In this document: piece by piece, positions 7,279-57,872 of the stretch
Layout of the letters: every line of letters starts with the position of its first letter
Numbering within the stretch: the stretch's first letter is position 1
Assembly: GCA_040285745.1 (NCBI GenBank)
Contig: JAUFOR010000003.1
Location: forward strand, 1,178,001 to 1,242,000
Direction: 5' to 3'
From: Barthelona sp. PCE
Lineage: Eukaryota
DNA length: 64,000 nt
The notes under the pieces: generated by a model
Seen by the model: the letters and a program-made list of their open reading frames with translations, nothing else
Database searches by the model: none
What the model was told of the DNA's origin: nothing
Position numbers and translations under genes: made by a program

Positions 7279-8238
7279 TTATGTATCCTTGAAGCAGAGA
7301 ACACTAGATACACGCCTTAAACACTTGTTTGGTGAGGTACCGCACTCAGACATTTGCATAAACGGGAAGCATTCATCGCTGCACTTGTTCAACAGTGTGT
7401 TGTATCTCATCAGGGTCGTGGAGCCGCCACCGTCAAGATTAACAGCATGCTGTATGTTTTCCCGCGTAACCAAGAAGTCTGCAAACTGATGCAGCGACAA
7501 TCCTTTAAGCTCCGGTTCGAATCCCTCGGCCTGAACGAGTTTGATAACGCCGTCCGCCGTTACACCTAATGCTACCCTAGGTGCGAATTCGTCGGCAAAT
7601 ATGTCATCAATGTGCTCGATCTCCCTTGCCTCTGCAACGTAATTCTCTCCGTCACGCACCAGCCATCCTATGCCCTGGATCAGGGTGTCTATATCTGTGT
7701 TCCTGATCGTTTCCGACTGCATATAGCCTACTAAAAGTCTGCCGTCTTTCAGAACTCCGATGTTAGTATTGCTACCCCCGAATATCTGCTGATACCCATC
7801 AAATATCGCATTACCGAGGCACATTCCGTTGTCCATGCCAAAGAACCCGGCGTTTGAGCCGGCTAAGCATCCTTGTCTTTCAAGAGTTTTAACCGCAGTG
7901 TTAAGATGTTGACCTTGACAACCATTAAGCGGTTCTAGAAACCTCATCCGCTTTGGACTGTAGCCTACACCAGTGGCTACAAGTACGTTCAACTTTTGAG
8001 TCCCACCTGGTCGATAGTAAGAAGCTTGATGGTGAGTTATTGAAAGAATCTTGTCCGAATTCAGATTAATTACGCGTATATCATCCTTATGGGCCATTTC
8101 TGTACTCATGCGCCTTGAGTTCACGAGAACATCACTGAATAAAGGCCCAAAACCGATATTTTCTGAAAAAATGGGTGTTGCAACACCAAACACAAAATAA
8201 AGTGCAAATAGTATGCCCGTCGCTACTGTTCTGTACAT
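7279..8238 (-). CDS. NAGPA: N-acetylglucosamine-1-phosphodiester alpha-N-acetylglucosaminidase (uncovering enzyme)-like, catalytic domain only
   Basis: ATG at 8238 (MYRTVA..., signal/anchor peptide). Motifs NAGFF-x5-CLGN, GRLLVGY, GIGWLVRDG, APRVALG, AVNLDGGGS and CxRRVSSVLC follow animal NAGPA in order. Confidence 0.85.
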   Translation of the reverse strand: MYRTVATGILFALYFVFGVATPIFSENIGFGPLFSDVLVNSRRMSTEMAHKDDIRVINLNSDKILSITHHQASYYRPGGTQKLNVLVATGVGYSPKRMRFLEPLNGCQGQHLNTAVKTLERQGCLAGSNAGFFGMDNGMCLGNAIFDGYQQIFGGSNTNIGVLKDGRLLVGYMQSETIRNTDIDTLIQGIGWLVRDGENYVAEAREIEHIDDIFADEFAPRVALGVTADGVIKLVQAEGFEPELKGLSLHQFADFLVTRENIQHAVNLDGGGSTTLMRYNTLLNKCSDECFPFMQMSECGTSPNKCLRRVSSVLCFKDT

Positions 8239-8409
8239 GATGTTTGAAAAAGGAAAAAAAGCGAGAAACACCTGCGCTACCTGAAAGTCGCACGTTGCTT
8301 CAGATTGCTTATGTCAGAGTTCTGATCACATATTCGGCGCACACGCATACAAACAGCCCGACAGCATCGCAGTAGAAATTCTGGACGTCATCAAAATGTC
8401 AGTCATCGT

Positions 8410-8800
8410 CGTGTGGTTCCAGCACACTTCCATTTTCAAAGAGTGTGCGCCGGTTGTGTGCCGCGCTGCAGAAGACACGAACCCTGAACAGTTAGATCTG
8501 CACTGACATCACACATAGATTTCAAAAGTCTGAGATTGTTGTGCTGCATAAACTGCCATACCAGCTGTGAACGCGAAACCCTATCGAAATGTCAGCCGGC
8601 CACGACGGTGCCGGGGTTTCAACCCCCAGCACGCGACGTAATCACCGAGCGGAACCAGTCTACAAAACAAAATTTATTATTCAATTGCTCTCGCCACTTA
8701 AGTTAACAACCAACCGGTGACGTAACACCGCTACTCCGGTACCCAGAAACAGTACACGGAGGCGAGTTACAATAATTTGGTTTGCAATGTTACAAATGCT
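8410..8800 (-). ncRNA. Candidate structured non-coding RNA, family unassigned
   Basis: ORF-free GC-rich island (38 of 60 bases G+C at 8581-8640) with several hairpins and a long-range helix. Mismatches read as G-U on the minus strand. See findings. Confidence 0.4.
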
Positions 8801-8933
8801 GCGTCAAAAGCTTGCTTTCCAAAAACTGATACATCGCACAAATACAAAACAGATTAAGGGACGAACTTACACATCGGGATACAGCCAGCACAGCCAAGAC
8901 GCATATTCCCCTTTTTCCCCTTTTTTCATCTGT

Positions 8934-8979
8934 GTATGTCAATATTTATACGTAATAAGACTCGACAGCTCATATTTAG
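8934..8979 (+). other. 46-nt spliceosomal intron in the aconitase 5' UTR
   Basis: GTATGT...GCTCATATTTAG. Same donor type, length class and 12-nt branch/acceptor spacing as the RPS4 intron. Lies between the CCTTT tract (8906-8928) and ACA-ATG. Confidence 0.7.
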
Positions 8980-8982
8980 ACA

Positions 8983-10956
8983 ATGCCTTGCGTTGCAAAG
9001 AAAATCCTTCAAGCTCACTGCGCTGAGCCCTTACCCGCTGTCGGCAACGAAATTATGCTCGCTGTTGACCTCAGTCTCAAGCAAGACGCCACTGGTACCG
9101 CCCAGAGTCTTGAATTAGAGCTTTTAATGGAAGATCGCGAAGATCCAAAAGAAAAGAAAGTTAAGCCTCGTGGATATATTTTTATTGATCACAACATGCA
9201 AGGCAATGGATATTTGAATCACGACGATCACGTATATCTCCGTTCTATCGCTGAAAGATATTCTCAACATTTTTTCCCTCCCGGTTCTGGAATTATTCAT
9301 CAACTGAACATTGAAAGCTGTATCCGCTCTGGTGAGGTTTGTATTGGTACCGATTCCCACACTCCTTCTGGTGGTGGTGTTGGTGCAATTTCCATTGGTG
9401 TCGGTGGACTTGATTCCGCCCTTGTCGATTCCGGTTCTGATCTGAAGCTCGTTATGCCCAAGATCGTCGGTATCCGTCTTGTTGGAAAGCTCCCTCCCTT
9501 TGTTTCTGCCAAGGACATTATTCTCCAAGTTCTCCGCGAACGTGGTTCACGTAACAAGAACATCATCTATGAGTACTTTGGTGAGGGTATTAAGGAGCTC
9601 GATGTTGCTGGCCGTGCCACCATCACTAACATGGGTGCCGAAGCCGGTGTCACCACCTCCCTCTTCCCCTCTGATGAGATTACCAAGATTTGGTTTGAGC
9701 AGATGGGCCGCCCAGAGCACTACGTCGAGATCCTCGCTGATGACGAGTCCGACTACGAGGAGATTCTTGAGATTGATCTCTCCAAGCTCCGCCCCAACGT
9801 TTCTATTCCCCATCAACCTCACTTTGTCAAGAGCGTTGACGAGTTCGAGGAGCCCATCCTTATCAACCAGGTCATCATTGGTTCTTGCACCAACGCTTCC
9901 TACCGTGATCTCATGACTGTCGCTGCTCTTCTGAAGGGTAAGACCTGTCACCCTGAGATCGAGGTTGCTATTGCCCCTGGTTCCCGTACCGTCCTCGAAA
10001 CCCTTGCCCGTAACGGTGCCCTCGCTGATCTAATCGCTTCTGGTTGCCGTATCCTTGAGTCTGGTTGCGGACCCTGTATTGGTATGGGTCTCTCCCCCAC
10101 AGCCGGTAACAACCCCGACAACCCACGTGGTGGCCGTACTCTCCGTTCTTTCAACCGTAACTTCTTCGGTCGTTGCGGTCACAAGGAAGGATCCGAGTCC
10201 TACCTCGCCTCCCCCGAGACATGTGCTGCTGCAGCACTCACTGGTTACATCTGCGGTGCTGACTCCCTGGGTATGGAAGTTCCCGTCATTCCTGAACCCG
10301 TGTACAACATCACTGACAACTGCGTCATCAAGCCTGATGAGAGCAAGGTCGGTATCACTCCCATTATCCGTGGCCCCAACATCAAGCCCATTCCTCCACT
10401 TTCTCCCCCTGAGGACATTGAGGTTCCCGTTATCCTGAAGTGTGGTGATGATATTACTACTGATGACATTATGCCTGCTGGTGCCAAGATTCTTCCCCTT
10501 CGTTCCAACGTTCCCGCTATTTCCAAGTTCGTTTTCGTCAACATGGATCCTACCTTCCACGATCGCGCTCTTGAAATGAAGGAGGAGCACGGTGGTTCCA
10601 TCATCATTGGTGGTGAAGCCTACGGCTCTGGTTCTTCCCGTGAACACGCTGCTCTCTGCCCCAGCGCTCAGTTGGGTGTTCGTATCGTCATTGCCAAGGA
10701 CGTTCAGCGTATTTTCGAGTCCAACGCCTGTAACTGGGGTCAGCTCGCTGCCTCATTCGAGGATCCCGCCGATTATGACCGTATCGAGCAAGGTGATATT
10801 CTTAAGACCATCAACCTCCGTGAAGGTGTTAAGGAAGGTACAATTAAGATCCGTAATGTCACCAAGGACTTTGAGTTCAACGTTGTCGTTGGATTCGGTG
10901 AAATTTCTAAGGAAGTTTACCTCGCTGGTGGTTTGATCAACTACGCCAAAAAATAA
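8983..10956 (+). CDS. Aconitate hydratase, prokaryotic Aquifex/archaeal-type single-chain [4Fe-4S] aconitase
   Basis: 657 aa. Motifs KILxAH, QDATGT, DHN, GIIHQ, DSHT, GSCTN, CGPCIG, FNRNF, ITTDDIMPAG, GSSREHA and terminal LAGGLINY; all three cluster cysteines present; no N-terminal presequence. Confidence 0.92.
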   Translation: MPCVAKKILQAHCAEPLPAVGNEIMLAVDLSLKQDATGTAQSLELELLMEDREDPKEKKVKPRGYIFIDHNMQGNGYLNHDDHVYLRSIAERYSQHFFPPGSGIIHQLNIESCIRSGEVCIGTDSHTPSGGGVGAISIGVGGLDSALVDSGSDLKLVMPKIVGIRLVGKLPPFVSAKDIILQVLRERGSRNKNIIYEYFGEGIKELDVAGRATITNMGAEAGVTTSLFPSDEITKIWFEQMGRPEHYVEILADDESDYEEILEIDLSKLRPNVSIPHQPHFVKSVDEFEEPILINQVIIGSCTNASYRDLMTVAALLKGKTCHPEIEVAIAPGSRTVLETLARNGALADLIASGCRILESGCGPCIGMGLSPTAGNNPDNPRGGRTLRSFNRNFFGRCGHKEGSESYLASPETCAAAALTGYICGADSLGMEVPVIPEPVYNITDNCVIKPDESKVGITPIIRGPNIKPIPPLSPPEDIEVPVILKCGDDITTDDIMPAGAKILPLRSNVPAISKFVFVNMDPTFHDRALEMKEEHGGSIIIGGEAYGSGSSREHAALCPSAQLGVRIVIAKDVQRIFESNACNWGQLAASFEDPADYDRIEQGDILKTINLREGVKEGTIKIRNVTKDFEFNVVVGFGEISKEVYLAGGLINYAKK

Positions 10957-11826: not shown

Positions 11827-12752
11827 TTTAAAAATTAAACAACCCAAAAAGAAGTGATAAACATTGAACGAAAAAAGTTAAAAATTCTAAAACAGTTATG
11901 GGCAGTAAAATACTTTATTAACTATATTTATGTCATACTTTGCACCATTTAATTTCATTTGAACATACTTTTATTCGAAATTATATTAAAATTATAGTGC
12001 CTGTCTTAATGGATCCAATATTTACCTTTTTTTCAGTAATGCGTTCGACAATAATTTCATATAGACTCTATTTATCAGACTTCTACAAAAACACTTATGC
12101 GATACTGATTTATATTGTAGATTTAAAATTTGTTAATCTTTGTTTTGCGATAAAAGAATATTATTTACCTCAAAAAAGGTTTTATAATCAATATTTATAC
12201 CTTATTTATTTAATTAAAAGTTGTTATTCTAAATATATGTAGAGAAAAAAATGGTAATCAATTTTCATTAAGGGTGAGTGGTAAATGTTTACTGTTGTTT
12301 GTAAATGTAAGTAAATATAGAGAATAAAACATAATTCATGACCCTAATATTAGTGGAACAGAATTGTGGATAAACAATATCAATAATTGGTATATATATA
12401 AAGATCTGTGGCTATAATTTGTGTAAAATCCATATATTATAATTATATGCATATGTTTTTTTTTTATCTTCTTCAAAGTAAAATTTCAGTAAAAGAATCT
12501 GTAAAAGATAGGGGAAATTAGTGGAAACATTCTGTAGATGCTGAAAAATGAACGTATAACTTGTAGTAGAAGATATTTTTATTATTTTTGTTACACATAT
12601 TTGAATGGTAGTATAGTTAATGTATCATAATGAGGATATTTAATGCATCATAAAACACACTCCTACATTGATTGTTTGTTGAATACAAGATGAAGAGATA
12701 TGTAACAAATAGTTCGAAATAAATATTTACACTGGAATAGTTGGAAAAGTGA

Positions 12753-16350: not shown

Positions 16351-17152
16351 TATGTAGTGGTATGAAGGAGTTAAAACTTTTACAAAAACACTTTTATAGG
16401 CTTTGCATTCTGTAACATTGATGAATATTTAGGTGATTGATTTTACATATGTATGCAGATAAAGTTAATAAACAGAATAAATCTTGTTCTTGTAACTACC
16501 TGTTTAAGACACTAGCTTTCAATAAGCTATATTCAGTTTTAAACGGTTTTATGCAGTTGATCCTCCAATTGCCAATGTGTGTTGTCCATTTGAGTGTTTT
16601 TCATTATGAAAGGATAAGAATTTGTGTTTGTTGCAGTCACTATTTGTTTTCACAGTAGTGAACTATCAATGCAGCCCAGCCACAGGTGAATCACTCGGCC
16701 ACGGAAGATTTCATATTGAAACTACATTTAGTGAGGATTTTCATTTTTGTGAAAGTAACGCCGGGGGCAAAGAGGATTTGATATACCGAGTATATCACAG
16801 CTTTTGTTGTAAAATGATTGATTTGAGGTTATAGTGTTTGTTAGAGGATCAAAATCAATAGTTTAGAGGAAGAAGATGCAGGTTGTCTCTAGCTCATGTA
16901 TTATCATATATTTTAGATGTTTAAAGTCTTAATCGTTCATATTTATAGTAAGTTAAGAATATGAACAAGCTGTAAAAAGCATATTTGCAGTTATTTTTTT
17001 GAGGTTTTTGTAGTCATTGATGTTTCAATATCCATTATGCAGTTTTCTATAACCCCATGGACAATATCCAGGTAAGTTGAGCCGTAGTATAAAGCTTAGG
17101 AGTACTGAACAGTAAATAAACTTCCTTTCGCAAATACTTTCCTTTTACTACA

Positions 17153-17982
17153 ATGGTATGCTTTAAATATATATTATATGTGTTCAACGGCAATCTAACA
17201 TTCAGCCTCGTGGATTAAAGAAGCACTTAAAGACTCTTGCCGCCAACTCCCTTTACAACGTCGGTAAGACACACGGTACCTTTGTTATCCGTGCCACCGA
17301 GGGCCCTCACAAGGCCTCCGAGTCCATCCCCATCGCTATCCTTCTTAGAGAGCGTCTTGGTCTTGCACTTACCCGTCAGGAAGCCAACCACATCTGTAAG
17401 CAGAAGAACGTTCTTGTTGATGGTAAGGTCAAGACTAACTGCCGTTACCCCATCGGTTTCCAGGATGTCATCACTCTTCCCAAGTGCAACAAGCAGTACC
17501 GTATTCTTTTCGATACTAAGGGCCGTATGAAGATCCTCCCCATCACCGAGGAAGAGGCTACCTACAAGATCTGCAAGGTTCGTCGTTATGAGCTCCTCGC
17601 TAACGGTATTCCCGCTATTGTCACCCACGATGGCCGTACCATCCGTTATCCCCCTAAGGAGATCAAGAAGAACGATTCCGTCAAGATCAACATCGAGCAG
17701 AACTCTGTCGAGGAAGTTGCTCCCATCGAAGTCGGTGCTCTTGTTATGATTACTGGTGGTCGTTCCCGTGGTCGTGTTGGTCGTATCGTCCGTTTCGAGA
17801 AGCACATTGGTTCTTTCGAGATTATTCACATTCGTGATGCTGATGGTAACACCTTTGCCACTCGTCTCAACAACGCTTTCGTCATTGGTTCCGAGAACAC
17901 TTCTCTCATCACCCTCCCTACCGATCGTGGTGTCCGTGTTCACATCATGGATGATCGTGAGAACCGTCTTGCCCGTCAGTAA
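17153..17982 (+). CDS. RPS4: 40S ribosomal protein S4 (eS4); join(17153..17155,17206..17982), 259 aa
   Basis: Spliced product reads M-PRGLKKHLK...GPHK...VLVDGKV...YPIGFQDVI...THDGRTIRYP...FATRLNN. Strong optimal-codon bias. Confidence 0.97.
17156..17205 (+). other. 50-nt phase-0 spliceosomal intron directly after the RPS4 start codon
   Basis: ATG|GTATGC...TCTAACATTCAG|CCT. Removing it restores the conserved eS4 N-terminus; the intron is not a multiple of 3. Confidence 0.93.
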
Positions 17983-20913: not shown

Positions 20914-22782
20914 ATGCAAGAGATTGATGTAGCAGAGACTACCGGGGCACTTGACATTGAACTGGCAGAGCGATTGTGCCAGATCACGTTCAACGATGCA
21001 CCAAAGGAATTTAGTTTTGCATCTGATGAGTTTGAGTTGACAGACGACGAGGGAGCAACGGGGGGCTTCAAGTTCGACGATACGTGGCACCAGACAGAGG
21101 AGTTTCTGTACGAGGGAGAGTTTTTTTCTCTGCCTCTTTACTGTTTAGTGGATGATTCGCTTCGGCATCTCGACTATGCCGCGTTTTACAACAAAATCGC
21201 TGGTCCTGAGCGCGAAAGGATGAAGCAATACCTTCCTGCAAATTTCTCCGATGATGATGTGATAACTGTTTTATCTGAACTGCAGTCCGGGGTTCTTTAT
21301 CGGGGACGTAATGACCAGCACACGCTTGCTGATGGTATACTAACTGGTACGATGAATTCTGGAATCGCACCAATCATAGAAGTGGAAACAGCTCTGCTTG
21401 CCGATGGTAAACGTTTTGCTGTCCGTGAGTCGTTTTTAAACTCACGCTACATGGCTGTATCGCTGATGGAACGAATGATGCATTATGAAATGCCGAAGTT
21501 CGAGGGTTTCGGACTATCTTCGTTTCTACCTCCTTTTTCCACACTTCTAAAGGCACAAAACACACACGAGAAGATCACAGCACTGTCTCGTCTCACAGAA
21601 TCTATTGACAAGGCTGCCAGACTTCGGTCCATCGTGAAAGCCCCTGTTGACCTCAACACAAAACCGTTAGAGGTGCCCGACTGCGAGGGTAAGACATGGC
21701 TTGGTCTCTTGATAACGCTAATGCATGAAGCTCAATTTGTAACGCTTGCCCAGTTGCAGCAGGTTTTTGACGCGGTTTCTATCGATCTATACGAGGGTTT
21801 CACCGCACCTGAGATCGCAATGGTTATTCTCTTTGGGCTTTTCTCACCAATACCATCTCTTGCCCAACTAGTTGATGGAACGCCAGTGGATATTGATGCC
21901 TTACCCCATCTCGGCACAGGAACTTACACGCTGCTGAAAGACCAGCTCCCTGAAGACTTCACACAGTACGAAGAATACGTGGCATCACTCTTTGTTGTTC
22001 CATCTGAAAGTTTTATAGAAGCGCTGAGTCGTAAGCCAAAACAGTTCCCTACTGGTTACAGCGAAGCAAAAACAAAGCACGCTTACCGCTGTCAGGAGAG
22101 GGAGAGGACAATTCGTATTCTGGAGCCTTTTCATTTCGTCATTGCCGGTCAACGTTGTTATTCTAATCCTTTGATGCAGAAACTCCGTGGCAACAAGGCG
22201 CGTAAGCACAACGCAATGCTCGACAACCGCCCATATTACATCACAGCAGCGTGCATCCTGCAAAACGCGGTCTGTGTACTTCCCGGCTTCACAGGTTCCA
22301 AGCCAATGACGCAGAAAGTGATAGGGTGGTCTATTTTCGTCCGCCCAGGCCTGAATACCGATTCGCTGTCCAAGTTTACAACAACTACCGTTGATAGATG
22401 CATTAAAAAGAGGAATCCGAGCCTAATGTATTACGCAAGAGGCAAGGTGTTTATCAGTTTACACTATCATCGAACGTTCATAACTTATTACAGCGACTAC
22501 AGCAAGCGAGAGATCGGACTACCCGATCTTTCTGAGTTGAAGAAGCCAACACCTGCCAGCAAGAAGAGAACTGCTGAGAACCGCACTAATAAGCGGAAAA
22601 CACATAGGAGATCTGTATCACAGCTGGAGACGTCGCGTTTTCTGGGCGTTTCATCACGTAAAAAGAGAAACAATAAGAAGAAAGTACAGGACATAGACAT
22701 TGATTCCCTGTTCGTCAACAGCACTGCTATGGAACATAAAACTGCGCCTCAGGCAGACATTAAGCAGATTCCACCACAATAG
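20914..22782 (+). CDS. NFRKB: NFRKB / INO80 complex subunit G-like
   Basis: DEUBAD-like ERERMKQYLP. The blocks YRCQERER...PFHF, KARKHNAMLDNRPYYIT...LPGFTGS and YARGKVFISLH parallel the conserved NFRKB blocks FQEQERYRY...AFTF, KAREHSLL..DRP.YVT...LP.GEGT and YD..RKLWIYLH. Basic NLS-like tail. Confidence 0.75.
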   Translation: MQEIDVAETTGALDIELAERLCQITFNDAPKEFSFASDEFELTDDEGATGGFKFDDTWHQTEEFLYEGEFFSLPLYCLVDDSLRHLDYAAFYNKIAGPERERMKQYLPANFSDDDVITVLSELQSGVLYRGRNDQHTLADGILTGTMNSGIAPIIEVETALLADGKRFAVRESFLNSRYMAVSLMERMMHYEMPKFEGFGLSSFLPPFSTLLKAQNTHEKITALSRLTESIDKAARLRSIVKAPVDLNTKPLEVPDCEGKTWLGLLITLMHEAQFVTLAQLQQVFDAVSIDLYEGFTAPEIAMVILFGLFSPIPSLAQLVDGTPVDIDALPHLGTGTYTLLKDQLPEDFTQYEEYVASLFVVPSESFIEALSRKPKQFPTGYSEAKTKHAYRCQERERTIRILEPFHFVIAGQRCYSNPLMQKLRGNKARKHNAMLDNRPYYITAACILQNAVCVLPGFTGSKPMTQKVIGWSIFVRPGLNTDSLSKFTTTTVDRCIKKRNPSLMYYARGKVFISLHYHRTFITYYSDYSKREIGLPDLSELKKPTPASKKRTAENRTNKRKTHRRSVSQLETSRFLGVSSRKKRNNKKKVQDIDIDSLFVNSTAMEHKTAPQADIKQIPPQ

Positions 22783-47466: not shown

Positions 47467-47844
47467 ATGTCTGTGCATTTTGACGATTTCAACGCGATCA
47501 AGCTACTTCCGGAGGACACAGAGAAACACACGCTCTCTTTACAGCAAAACGCAGAGAAATTTCTTCTAGAATCATCTAGCTTTTCTACAGATGTGGGGAC
47601 TATCGTAGATCTCCTGGACGAGTTCTACGTCTTTGTTGAACGGGCACGTTTAACAACAATCGGTCTTCGTAACAGAATAGATAATTTTGACCAACACAAA
47701 GCAATGCAACGCGAAGAACTCAATCGCGTATTGCAACAGAAGGAGGATGAGCTCAAGAAACTCGAGATTGAACACCAAATACTTCATGATACATATCGCA
47801 CACAACAACAATTTGAATCACGTCTTTCTAACAATAGAGTATGA
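47467..47844 (+). CDS. IFT20: Intraflagellar transport protein 20
   Basis: VHFDDFNAIKLL...VERARLTTIGLRN...ELKKLEIEHQIL parallels IFT20 LHFDELNKLRVL...AENEKMKAIGARN...; 125 aa. Confidence 0.88.
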   Translation: MSVHFDDFNAIKLLPEDTEKHTLSLQQNAEKFLLESSSFSTDVGTIVDLLDEFYVFVERARLTTIGLRNRIDNFDQHKAMQREELNRVLQQKEDELKKLEIEHQILHDTYRTQQQFESRLSNNRV

Positions 47845-52110: not shown

Positions 52111-52440
52111 ATGGCTCGTTCAGGTAAAAAGAAGTCCCACGGTTCTGTCAACCAACAGCTCTCTCTCGTTATGCGTTCCGGTAAAGCTTCACTTGGTATT
52201 CGTACCACTCTCCGTACCATCCGTCGTGGTCAGGCTAAGCTTACTCTCATCGCCAACAACACTCCTGCTTTAACCCGCTCACAGATTGAGTACTACTGTG
52301 CCCTCACCAACACTGGTGTTCTCCACTACAACGGTACTAACAACGATTTGGGTACTGCTTGCGGTAAGTTCTTCCGTGTTTCCGCTATGTCCATCACCAA
52401 CCCCGGTGATTCTGACATTGTTGAGAAGCACAGCGAGTAA
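52111..52440 (+). CDS. RPL30: 60S ribosomal protein L30 (eL30), intronless
   Basis: LSLVMRSGK...IANNTP...IEYY...YNGTNNDLGTACGKFFRV...PGDSDI. Confidence 0.97.
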   Translation: MARSGKKKSHGSVNQQLSLVMRSGKASLGIRTTLRTIRRGQAKLTLIANNTPALTRSQIEYYCALTNTGVLHYNGTNNDLGTACGKFFRVSAMSITNPGDSDIVEKHSE

Positions 52441-53654: not shown

Positions 53655-53921
53655 TTAGTTGTTTACGTATGTTAAATATACATCATTATTTGAAGCAGGG
53701 TCTGTAGGTGCGCTTGGTGCTTGTTTCGTCTTCATCGGAATAGCAGGGTTATAGAGTTCTCCACCTATAGCTTGAGGATTCGCTACAACCTCAACAGGTG
53801 GCTTGGGCTCATCATTGGCAGACATCCTCTTTCTGACAGCTTTGCTTGTACAAGCCAGATATAAAGCTGCTGCAAGACATGCTATGATTACAAAAATGCC
53901 AACTGTTCGCCAAGCAGACAT
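53655..53921 (-). CDS. Small single-pass membrane protein (88 aa)
   Basis: ATG 53921; TM segment VGIFVIIACLAAALYLAC, then basic KAVRKR and a Pro-rich tail. Confidence 0.65.
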   Translation of the reverse strand: MSAWRTVGIFVIIACLAAALYLACTSKAVRKRMSANDEPKPPVEVVANPQAIGGELYNPAIPMKTKQAPSAPTDPASNNDVYLTYVNN

Positions 53922-56105: not shown

Positions 56106-57872
56106 TTATGATCGTCGATCCAGTTCCTCTATCAAAAATTTAGAAGCGTATGTCATGATATCGAAGCAGCTGTTTCTGTATAGTTCTACTTGAGCTTTTG
56201 TGGGCGGGTTTATGACTCTATAAATAGGAACATTGAATAGTATATCAAGAAAATAATGGATGTAGTAAGTGTAATTCTTTAGCAATAATCGTAGCGCACG
56301 GATAGTACCTGGCGTATCCCTTCTATAAGATCGATTCTGTCTAAATTCCTTTATCTTCTTTAGAAAATCATATATACTTGAAATAAAACCGAAATGTTCA
56401 CCAATATTAACAATTGTAGGTGCAAAATCTGCTATTTCAGGTGGTTCATCAACTTCTTCTTCCTCTTCTTCCTCTTCTTCACTATCATAATCATCATAAT
56501 CGTCATAAGGATCATACTCTGATTCTATATTGTTTTCTGCATCACTGATAACCTCTAGATCAACGAGTTTGTTTGGGGGACTATGTGATACGTCAATTAA
56601 TGAATCTAAGACCATATCGACATCTTTTAGAGCAGTTCTCGTTGGAGGAAGTGTGAATGATCTCATCAGGCGTGGGATTGGTAACCCAAATCGAGGATCC
56701 TTTCTTCTCTTAATATTAAGGCGTTTCACTGCAACGTCATCAACCTCTTTCTTCCTTCTGTTTTTGCATATCGAGCATTGGCACTGCCTATCTTTTGATC
56801 GATACCTGAGATGTTTCATCTTTGCTTGTGGCCGTTTAGAACACTTGAGCACTAAATGATAGAATTTCACAGCGAAACTTGCCAATAAACTAAATTCAAA
56901 GACAAAATCAACTAATGCATCGAGTTTATAGTACTTGTCAACCAAAGGGTAGTGTAAGACATGTAGAAATACGAGATTAAACACACGCTGGATACCTATC
57001 TTAGCAAAATCCATATCTCCATCACTATATTTGAAGAAGCTTTTCAATCCCTTCTTTGGACGTTTCAATAAAGTTTTATAAACTTGATATACCTTTTTTG
57101 ACACCTGAGCAACTGGTACAAAAAGTGGAATAGGCATATCTGTCTCAATAAATGCACCAATAAAACTGGTTTTTCTAGCAATTAAGTCCATTCGTTGCGG
57201 TTCTAATTCGTAAAAAGCACGCGTTAGCATCTCGTTAGCAAGCGTTGTGAGGCGCTCTTCATGATGTAAAGCAGCAATTTGCATAAAAGAATCTATAAGT
57301 TTTAATCTTGAATCTTCAATTTTTCCATGATGAAGATACAGAAAAACAAATTGACAGGGATGGTTCCAAAAACGGACTGGCTCACCTCCACTTCCATATC
57401 GAAGAGCATATACAAGAACTCGTAAGCATAAAAAAGGTATTCGAGGATCACGAAAATTCAATTGATTAGAAAAAACACCAATGAAGAAGCTTTCTGATGA
57501 AATAGGAAAAGGATCCAGGTTATCATAATTCTTATGCCCAGAAAAAACGCTTGCTAAAAGCTGAATTGCTGTTATACAATCTTTAGAGTCAAGGTAGGCC
57601 GTATCCGTATCGTTTGGGAATATGACTTTCCATACTTGATCCCTTAGGTGCTTGGCATGCTTGGTTTCAAAACGCGCGCAACTAAAACCGGCTTTAAATA
57701 GCTGATCTTGGTTTAGCCTCCCTATTTTATCCACTATCTCGACGCAGACTTGGTCATTTGTCATAAAAGGTGATAGTATTGGCCCAACAGAGAAATCAAA
57801 GATTTCTGCACGACTTGTAAGTGCAGGATCAGACAATAAATCGACACTAACGGGTTCTGGCTCAATGGTCAT
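56106..57872 (-). CDS. Hypothetical protein with an acidic tract
   Basis: 588-aa ORF; CQCSIC motif and a D/E run; family not recognised. Confidence 0.65.
   Translation of the reverse strand: MTIEPEPVSVDLLSDPALTSRAEIFDFSVGPILSPFMTNDQVCVEIVDKIGRLNQDQLFKAGFSCARFETKHAKHLRDQVWKVIFPNDTDTAYLDSKDCITAIQLLASVFSGHKNYDNLDPFPISSESFFIGVFSNQLNFRDPRIPFLCLRVLVYALRYGSGGEPVRFWNHPCQFVFLYLHHGKIEDSRLKLIDSFMQIAALHHEERLTTLANEMLTRAFYELEPQRMDLIARKTSFIGAFIETDMPIPLFVPVAQVSKKVYQVYKTLLKRPKKGLKSFFKYSDGDMDFAKIGIQRVFNLVFLHVLHYPLVDKYYKLDALVDFVFEFSLLASFAVKFYHLVLKCSKRPQAKMKHLRYRSKDRQCQCSICKNRRKKEVDDVAVKRLNIKRRKDPRFGLPIPRLMRSFTLPPTRTALKDVDMVLDSLIDVSHSPPNKLVDLEVISDAENNIESEYDPYDDYDDYDSEEEEEEEEEVDEPPEIADFAPTIVNIGEHFGFISSIYDFLKKIKEFRQNRSYRRDTPGTIRALRLLLKNYTYYIHYFLDILFNVPIYRVINPPTKAQVELYRNSCFDIMTYASKFLIEELDRRS

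Follow-up and report, generated by a model that had tools for sequence, protein, structure and literature searches.

In the 64-kb window analysed here (64,000 nucleotides of contig JAUFOR010000003.1 from Barthelona sp. PCE), a gene for a NAGPA-like phosphodiester glycosidase on the minus strand and an aconitase gene on the plus strand flank a spacer that contains a GC-rich island. The window consists of compact, intron-poor eukaryotic DNA with a GC content of 39.5%, and the gaps between its convergent ORFs measure 2-39 bp. Convergent ORF ends are only 2-4 bp apart at 22782/22785, 38321/38326, 43423/43426 and 56102/56106, where the 3' UTRs must therefore overlap on opposite strands and compaction is extreme. 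Long AT-rich gaps are tolerated in this compact genome, as evidenced by the spacers 11848-12752 and 16351-17226 (905 and 876 bp, GC 0.24 and 0.33), which hold no convincing ORF. Barthelona sp. PCE is a metamonad whose genome, according to PMC11316075, is the smallest known for a free-living eukaryote (10.2 Mb, 40.3% GC, 4.46% repetitive DNA, 5064 predicted proteins) and has an unusual telomere repeat, TATATGGTCT. The main text of that paper, as distinct from its supplements, has no occurrence of the terms snRNA, ncRNA or aconitase, and the RNA genes of the organism are not described there.

The NAGPA-like gene (7279-8238, minus strand, Pfam 7e-24) is complete and encodes a protein of 319 aa. 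An exact copy of the protein is present in a public collection, and its relatives reach only 31-34% identity. The gene has its own pyrimidine tract at 8246-8265. This proximal tract, together with the ten AUGs found on the minus strand of 8270-8786, makes the spacer a poor 5' leader for the NAGPA-like gene. A 588-nt 5'-UTR intron of the same gene, bounded on the minus strand by GTAAGT (8870) and TTTCAG (8283), was considered and judged implausible for this genome.

On the other side, the aconitase ORF at 8983-10956 (657 aa) matches the last 657 residues of PCE1_001234, a 704-aa NCBI "hypothetical protein" of Barthelona sp. PCE, at 100% identity. In the public model, the gene comprises an annotated exon 1 of 46 codons (8796-8933, plus strand), a 46-nt intron of the form GTATGT...TTTAG (8934-8979) and exon 2 (8980-10956); translation of the two exons gives exactly the public 704-aa protein. 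Besides one EukProt transcript (53% identity), the best matches of the aconitase are archaeal and bacterial short aconitases (47-53% identity), including those of Micrarchaeota, Nitrospirota and Promethearchaeota, a pattern that suggests acquisition by an old lateral transfer. Recent import of a gene block is not supported, as the homologues of the NAGPA-like protein and of the aconitase do not exceed 34% and 53% identity, respectively. With no sign of recent import in the genes on either side, the GC content of the island is unlikely to be a remnant of donor DNA.

Because the public CDS starts at 8796 rather than at 8983, the annotated non-coding gap is 8239-8795. This start affects the claim of an earlier note, made from the letters of the window, which had placed a structured RNA of about 390 nt at 8410-8800, transcribed away from the aconitase. 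The proposed 5' end of that RNA would abut or overlap the aconitase CDS: positions 8796-8800 lie within the annotated CDS on the opposite strand, and the putative 5' hairpin 8781-86/8791-96 reaches into the start codon of the public model (ATG 8796).

The exon 1 peptide is basic and hydroxylated (Ser/Thr-rich), and resembles a targeting peptide. The extension is somewhat doubtful, given the start of the homologue, the codon scores and a translated pyrimidine tract. The closest eukaryotic homologue (53% identity) has no N-terminal extension, and its start aligns with ATG 8983. The codon score of exon 1 is near 0, as in non-coding DNA. Moreover, ATG 8983 is preceded by an uninterrupted run of 20 pyrimidines (8908-8927, plus strand), of a kind found ahead of many start codons in the window and the strongest among the 22 genes examined; the public model translates this tract as part of exon 1. 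Pyrimidine-tract scores are 1.00 for ATG 8983 and 0.65 upstream of 8796, the latter among the weakest, on a statistic that discriminates weakly (gene median 0.80, random mean 0.70). Either a targeting peptide has been gained here, or the extension is an artefact of annotation and the intron belongs to the 5' UTR.

These features bear on an explanation of the island that needs no RNA gene. The island may be the aconitase promoter together with a long plus-strand 5' leader, any fold on the minus strand being incidental; transcription would start inside the island or farther upstream, with ATG 8796 (or 8787) opening the targeting-like exon. The public gene model, with its start at 8796 and its splicing of 8934-8979, is consistent with this explanation, whereas the start of the homologue, the weak tract upstream of 8796, the translation of the strong tract as coding sequence and the non-coding codon scores of exon 1 argue against it. 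We regard the leader as doubtful, yet as the chief rival of an RNA gene. If correct, it would bear on the question of whether a targeting extension was gained by an archaeal- or bacterial-type aconitase.

The island itself spans 8300-8780, contains neither an ORF nor a repeat, and has a GC content of 0.486. The GC content of the whole spacer (8241-8982) is 0.456, compared with 0.24-0.40 in all other spacers of at least 100 bp in the window. The GC-rich, ORF-free island of the earlier note is thus real. Its richest 200 nt (8448-8647) reach 0.54. Among the 13 spacers of at least 200 bp, the three next-richest have 200-nt GC peaks of 0.515, 0.475 and 0.445, and each holds a small ORF (codon scores 0.196, 0.126 and 0.159); peaks do not exceed 0.395 in the remaining nine. 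Spacers were defined with an ORF cut-off of 150 aa, and smaller genes remain inside them. The small ORFs of these three spacers, all with coding-like codon scores, are an L30e/L7Ae-family ribosomal protein gene (52111-52440, plus strand, Pfam 3.5e-21), an IFT20 gene (47467-47844, plus strand, Pfam 2.8e-19) and an 88-aa ORF with no Pfam match (53655-53921, minus strand). Within the 64-kb window, no GC-rich spacer segment other than the island lacks a small protein gene as its explanation.

The example of these three spacers could suggest that the island, too, hides an unannotated protein gene, interrupted by several short introns or read from a non-standard start, and one plus-strand frame has just 4 stops across 8241-8786. 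However, the longest ATG ORF of the island is 43 aa (codon score 0.01), and no frame has coding-like codon use. Codon log-likelihoods are at most 0.02 in the structured core described below and at most 0.06 in the island, compared with a mean of 0.151 and a 5th percentile of 0.027 in true frames, and no island frame reaches the true-frame 25th percentile. Pfam searches of six read-through frames gave no match at E<=0.1 and no relic of a known domain, and none of the four short island ORFs tested was found in a protein collection that contains the annotated proteins of this genome. A protein gene is therefore very improbable.

A further explanation is that the island is non-functional, a stretch of decayed or neutral DNA, for example what is left of a former gene or of an ancient insertion, the fold being a chance event of the top 1%. 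This agrees with the lack of any family match or repeat and of motifs more frequent than chance, and with the existence in this genome of the 905-bp and 876-bp spacers mentioned above. The other non-coding spacers are AT-rich, however, and neutral DNA should not hold 49-54% GC. Likewise, the six frames contain no domain relic, 25-nt and 33-nt pieces of the core have no exact match at any locus in collections of prokaryotic genomes and viral contigs, recent import of the genes on either side is not supported, and repeats make up just 4.46% of a highly streamlined genome of 10.2 Mb (PMC11316075). We consider a non-functional island unlikely.

No second copy of the island was found within the window, and its CpG level is unremarkable. 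Two direct-repeat pairs hinted at a tandem repeat or at a periodicity of about 84 nt, which was not supported on testing. In metagenome scans with the NAGPA-like protein and with a neighbouring orphan protein of 1313 aa, no encoded relative was found. On the minus strand, CUGACAUUU(C/U)GAU occurs twice (8595-8583 and 8402-8390, 12/13 identical). The word CUGACAU occurs on this strand a third time (8317-8311) and its complement AUGUCAG once (8509-8503), allowing alternative pairings of 7-8 bp.

Folding stability was compared with that of shuffled sequences. The full 8410-8800 stretch surpasses its shuffles only modestly, with a z-score of -2.11 on the minus strand, equalled by 2 of 100 shuffles, and of -1.55 on the plus strand, equalled by 6 of 100. 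A fixed 150-nt grid served as background (640 window-strands, mean z -0.09, sd 1.09) and places the folding signal at 8500-8775 on the minus strand. Segment 8601-8750 of this strand, with a z-score of -3.27, ranks 5th of the 640, and all four better window-strands are inside long ORFs. By contrast with the claim that 8410-8500 belongs to a structured RNA, windows starting at 8400-8475 show no signal on either strand (z -0.71 to +1.44). Segment 8540-8780 has a z-score of -3.11 on the minus strand (0 of 200 shuffles as good), where the MFE and centroid structures are almost identical, and of -0.57 on the plus strand (54 of 200). For 8556-8775, limits that were chosen after seeing the scan and on which the value depends, the minus strand reaches -3.62 (0 of 150) and the plus strand -1.37; ensemble diversity on the minus strand is 18, compared with 53+-19 in shuffles (4 of 150 as low).

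Folding beyond chance, as modelled from the single sequence, thus appears to be limited to 8556-8775 on the minus strand, and the claim of better-than-shuffled folding stands for this segment and not for the rest. The half of the island at 8300-8555 (GC 0.469) is devoid of folding signal on both strands. Instead of about 390 nt, the supported structured part comprises about 220 nt. Z-scores near -3 are reached by about 1% of window-strands, including four inside ORFs, and so can arise by chance, as the non-functional explanation would have it. The strand asymmetry that had been claimed is present (minus z -3.1 to -3.6 versus plus -0.6 to -1.4), but a difference as large as that of the core occurs in 6.2% of the 320 grid windows.

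In the predicted minimum-free-energy fold, the core (8556-8775, minus strand) has an energy of -84.5 kcal/mol and 70 pairs (38 G-C, 20 A-U and 12 G-U), arranged in four abutting hairpin domains. Domain 1 (8722-8770) is a near-perfect 49-nt hairpin with the 7-nt loop GUUUCUG, on which the MFE and centroid structures agree; it competes with helix 8684-95/8761-73 of the earlier note. Domain 2 (8641-8721) is closed by a predicted 8-bp stem, GUCACCGG/UCGGUGAU, and has a weakly paired, A/U-rich interior that includes the Sm-like word AAUUUUG (8674-8668). Domain 3 (8601-8640) is predicted to form a 15-bp hairpin with the core GUGCUGGGG-GUUGAAA-CCCCGGCAC (8632-8608). Domain 4 (8560-8600) would consist of an 8-bp stem, an internal loop of 6+6 nt and an apical stem of 3 bp, and holds CAUUUCGAUAG (8591-8581), which differs from the core of U3 box A at a single position. 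When the MFE fold was read by eye, no GNRA-type loops were seen, nor any other features by which large RNAs with a catalytic or scaffold role are recognised.

The helices on which the RNA had been proposed are complementary: six were checked residue by residue and pair as described. C-A mismatches on the plus strand that become G-U pairs on the minus strand, reported for at least four helices, were seen at three (8781-86/8791-96, 8608-32 and 8701-15). As for the long-range 7-bp helix 8414-20/8651-57, by our arithmetic several helices of this kind are expected by chance per 391 nt.

The distribution of ATGs brings the aconitase leader back into consideration. Plus-strand ATGs are depleted over 8270-8786 (3 observed versus 7.9+-2.1 expected, P ~0.014), which would fit a plus-strand mRNA leader instead of an RNA gene, and none occurs between 8590 and 8786. 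In addition, A+C make up 61% of the plus strand of the core, which folds no better than shuffles (z -0.57), as expected of an open leader. Nevertheless, the ATG-free run 8592-8786 is not significant against a control that preserves dinucleotides (P 0.34), and a leader accounts neither for the GC content of 49-54% nor for the minus-strand fold.

The explanation that we favour, with somewhat less than even confidence, is that the island holds an unannotated, independent structured RNA gene of no assigned class on the minus strand. Geneless DNA is AT-rich in this genome, and a unique 480-bp segment with 49-54% GC and no coding signal calls for constraint. The RNA gene builds on what is observed, namely composition, the lack of coding signal and strand-specific thermodynamic stability, to which it would add transcription, the RNA ends and any function. 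Points against it are the lack of matching Rfam families, the z-scores near -3 in about 1% of window-strands and the unexceptional strand asymmetry. The new ncRNA of the earlier note survives as an option, with different limits, and is a reasonable candidate resting on composition and single-sequence thermodynamics.

According to this model, the candidate RNA would have a minus-strand transcription unit to itself, starting in 8780-8840 and diverging from the aconitase promoter. The promoter may be shared bidirectionally by the two, and a pyrimidine-rich tract upstream of the proposed RNA (16/20, 8846-8865, minus strand) may be a promoter element, though it is not distinctive, as its score of 0.80 is reached by 22% of random positions. 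The RNA would fold into the four stacked hairpin domains of the 8556-8775 core and may extend through the remaining GC-rich stretch towards about 8300. Selection on the hairpin domains would keep G+C high, while unconstrained spacers drifted to 24-40% GC. A minus-strand transcript of about 220-480 nt could thus be a lineage-specific or unrecognisably divergent structured RNA of no described family, a possibility that we put forward with more reserve. If the candidate is genuine, an orphan structured RNA would extend the minimal ncRNA set of a deep-branching metamonad, or might be a missing essential RNA in disguise, and that such a streamlined genome has kept it would imply that its function is important.

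Comparison with known RNA classes was based on covariance-model searches with the 4227 models of Rfam release 15. None matches the window at the gathering threshold, in agreement with the earlier statement that U1, U2, U4, U5, SRP, RNase P/MRP and a telomerase template could not be matched by eye. At E<=10, searches of both strands of the candidate yielded only Plasmid_R1162, RMST_5 and mir-21 in one case and RMST_5 and mir-3804 in another, all obviously spurious, with scores of 13-17 bits against thresholds of 52-90; matches to domain 3 are of this spurious kind only. ARAGORN found no tRNA or tmRNA gene in the window. RNase P and MRP RNAs carry the CR-I word GNAANNUCNGNG, which is found on neither strand; with no Rfam match, these RNAs were rejected. 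H/ACA, SRP, U4-like and tRNA-like RNAs were compared by eye and likewise rejected, as the defining spacing or boxes are missing and Rfam is silent.

The earlier note had suggested a divergent snRNA or a telomerase-like RNA, and the search results speak against both. Like the candidate, a telomerase RNA would be GC-rich, poorly conserved and several hundred nucleotides long, and an unannotated one would be expected somewhere in the genome. Unlike a telomerase RNA, the island has no template complementary to TATATGGTCT, the repeat given in PMC11316075. Both strands were searched for every permutation of TATATGGTCT, as exact 11-mers, 12-13-mers with 1 mismatch, 14-mers with 2 and 16-mers with 3, and no match of at least 11 nt was found in 8239-8982. 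A telomerase RNA is largely refuted by this result. The only exact 11-nt match to the repeat in the window (56607-56617, minus strand) lies inside a 588-aa ORF (56106-57872) and is probably due to chance.

The candidate resembles Sm-class snRNAs (U1, U2, U4 and U5) in that GC-rich hairpins stand beside a single-stranded, A/U-rich segment with AAUUUUG, and in that its gene would stand by itself in a spacer; the snRNAs of metamonads are described as divergent. The Sm-like word is indeed present at 8674-8668 on the minus strand, but is uninformative, as this heptamer is commoner by chance (32 expected in the window) than observed (18). The strict Sm pattern RAU4-6GR is absent from both strands of 8270-8900, the AAUUUUG being followed by U. 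Typical signatures of snRNAs are the U1 5' end, GUAGUA of U2, the U5 loop and ACAGAGA of U6. GUAGUA, ACAGAGA, ACUUAC, ACAUAC and U5-loop words do not occur on the minus strand of 8270-8900; ACTTAC is found at 8865-8870 on the plus strand only, inside the annotated aconitase exon 1. As no snRNA model matches either, a divergent Sm-class snRNA or telomerase RNA is extremely improbable.

U3 snoRNA provided one lead. The candidate falls in the size range of 200-330 nt, and CAUUUCGAUAG at 8591-8581 (minus strand) matches the 11-nt core of U3 box A (GGAUCAUUUCUAUAG-like, consensus as in Entamoeba U3 sequences) with 1 mismatch. Downstream on the same strand, the 8300-8555 segment contains UGAUGU (8511), ACGAUGA (8409), UUGAUGA (8394) and CUGACAU (8402 and 8317), so that the box-A-like word is followed, in the right order, by C'-like, C-like and D words. 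A very divergent box C/D RNA, either a U3 snoRNA at about 8612-8310 or a small snoRNA cluster, could be read from these words, which include two WYGAUGA (8409 and 8394) and a CUGA (8317); in our reading, a 4-bp UAUG/CAUA stem is placeable around the boxes at 8511 and 8317. Among the U3 boxes set out in the relevant portion of PMC5832005 (A' TACTY, B AGYGA, C RTGATGA, C' WYGATGA and D CTGA), however, A', B and strict C are absent from the minus strand, where C' occurs twice (8409 and 8394) and D four times.

GGAUCA is absent from the minus strand as well, and a box A 15-mer with up to 3 mismatches gives no match at 8591-8581. The box A core match is the only one in the window with at most 1 mismatch, although 1.75 are expected per window by chance, and it was found after many motif families had been tried. 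Rfam U3 models are silent at E<=10, even on 326 nt. Kink-turn geometry is not favoured, AUGUCAG/CUGACAU forming a plain 7-bp Watson-Crick helix in the MFE structure, and the putative 5' end would fall inside the strong hairpin of domain 3 and cut it. The candidate was consequently rejected as a member of the U3 family, and a box C/D RNA of any such kind is very unlikely.

A further parallel is a way of finding RNA genes rather than an RNA family. GC-rich islands can reveal ncRNA genes in AT-rich genomes, and such screens are usually backed by expression or conservation data. The present candidate differs in being known from composition and single-sequence folding alone. Like the genes found in those screens, it has a GC peak in AT-rich non-coding DNA, where no ORF is present and one strand folds stably.
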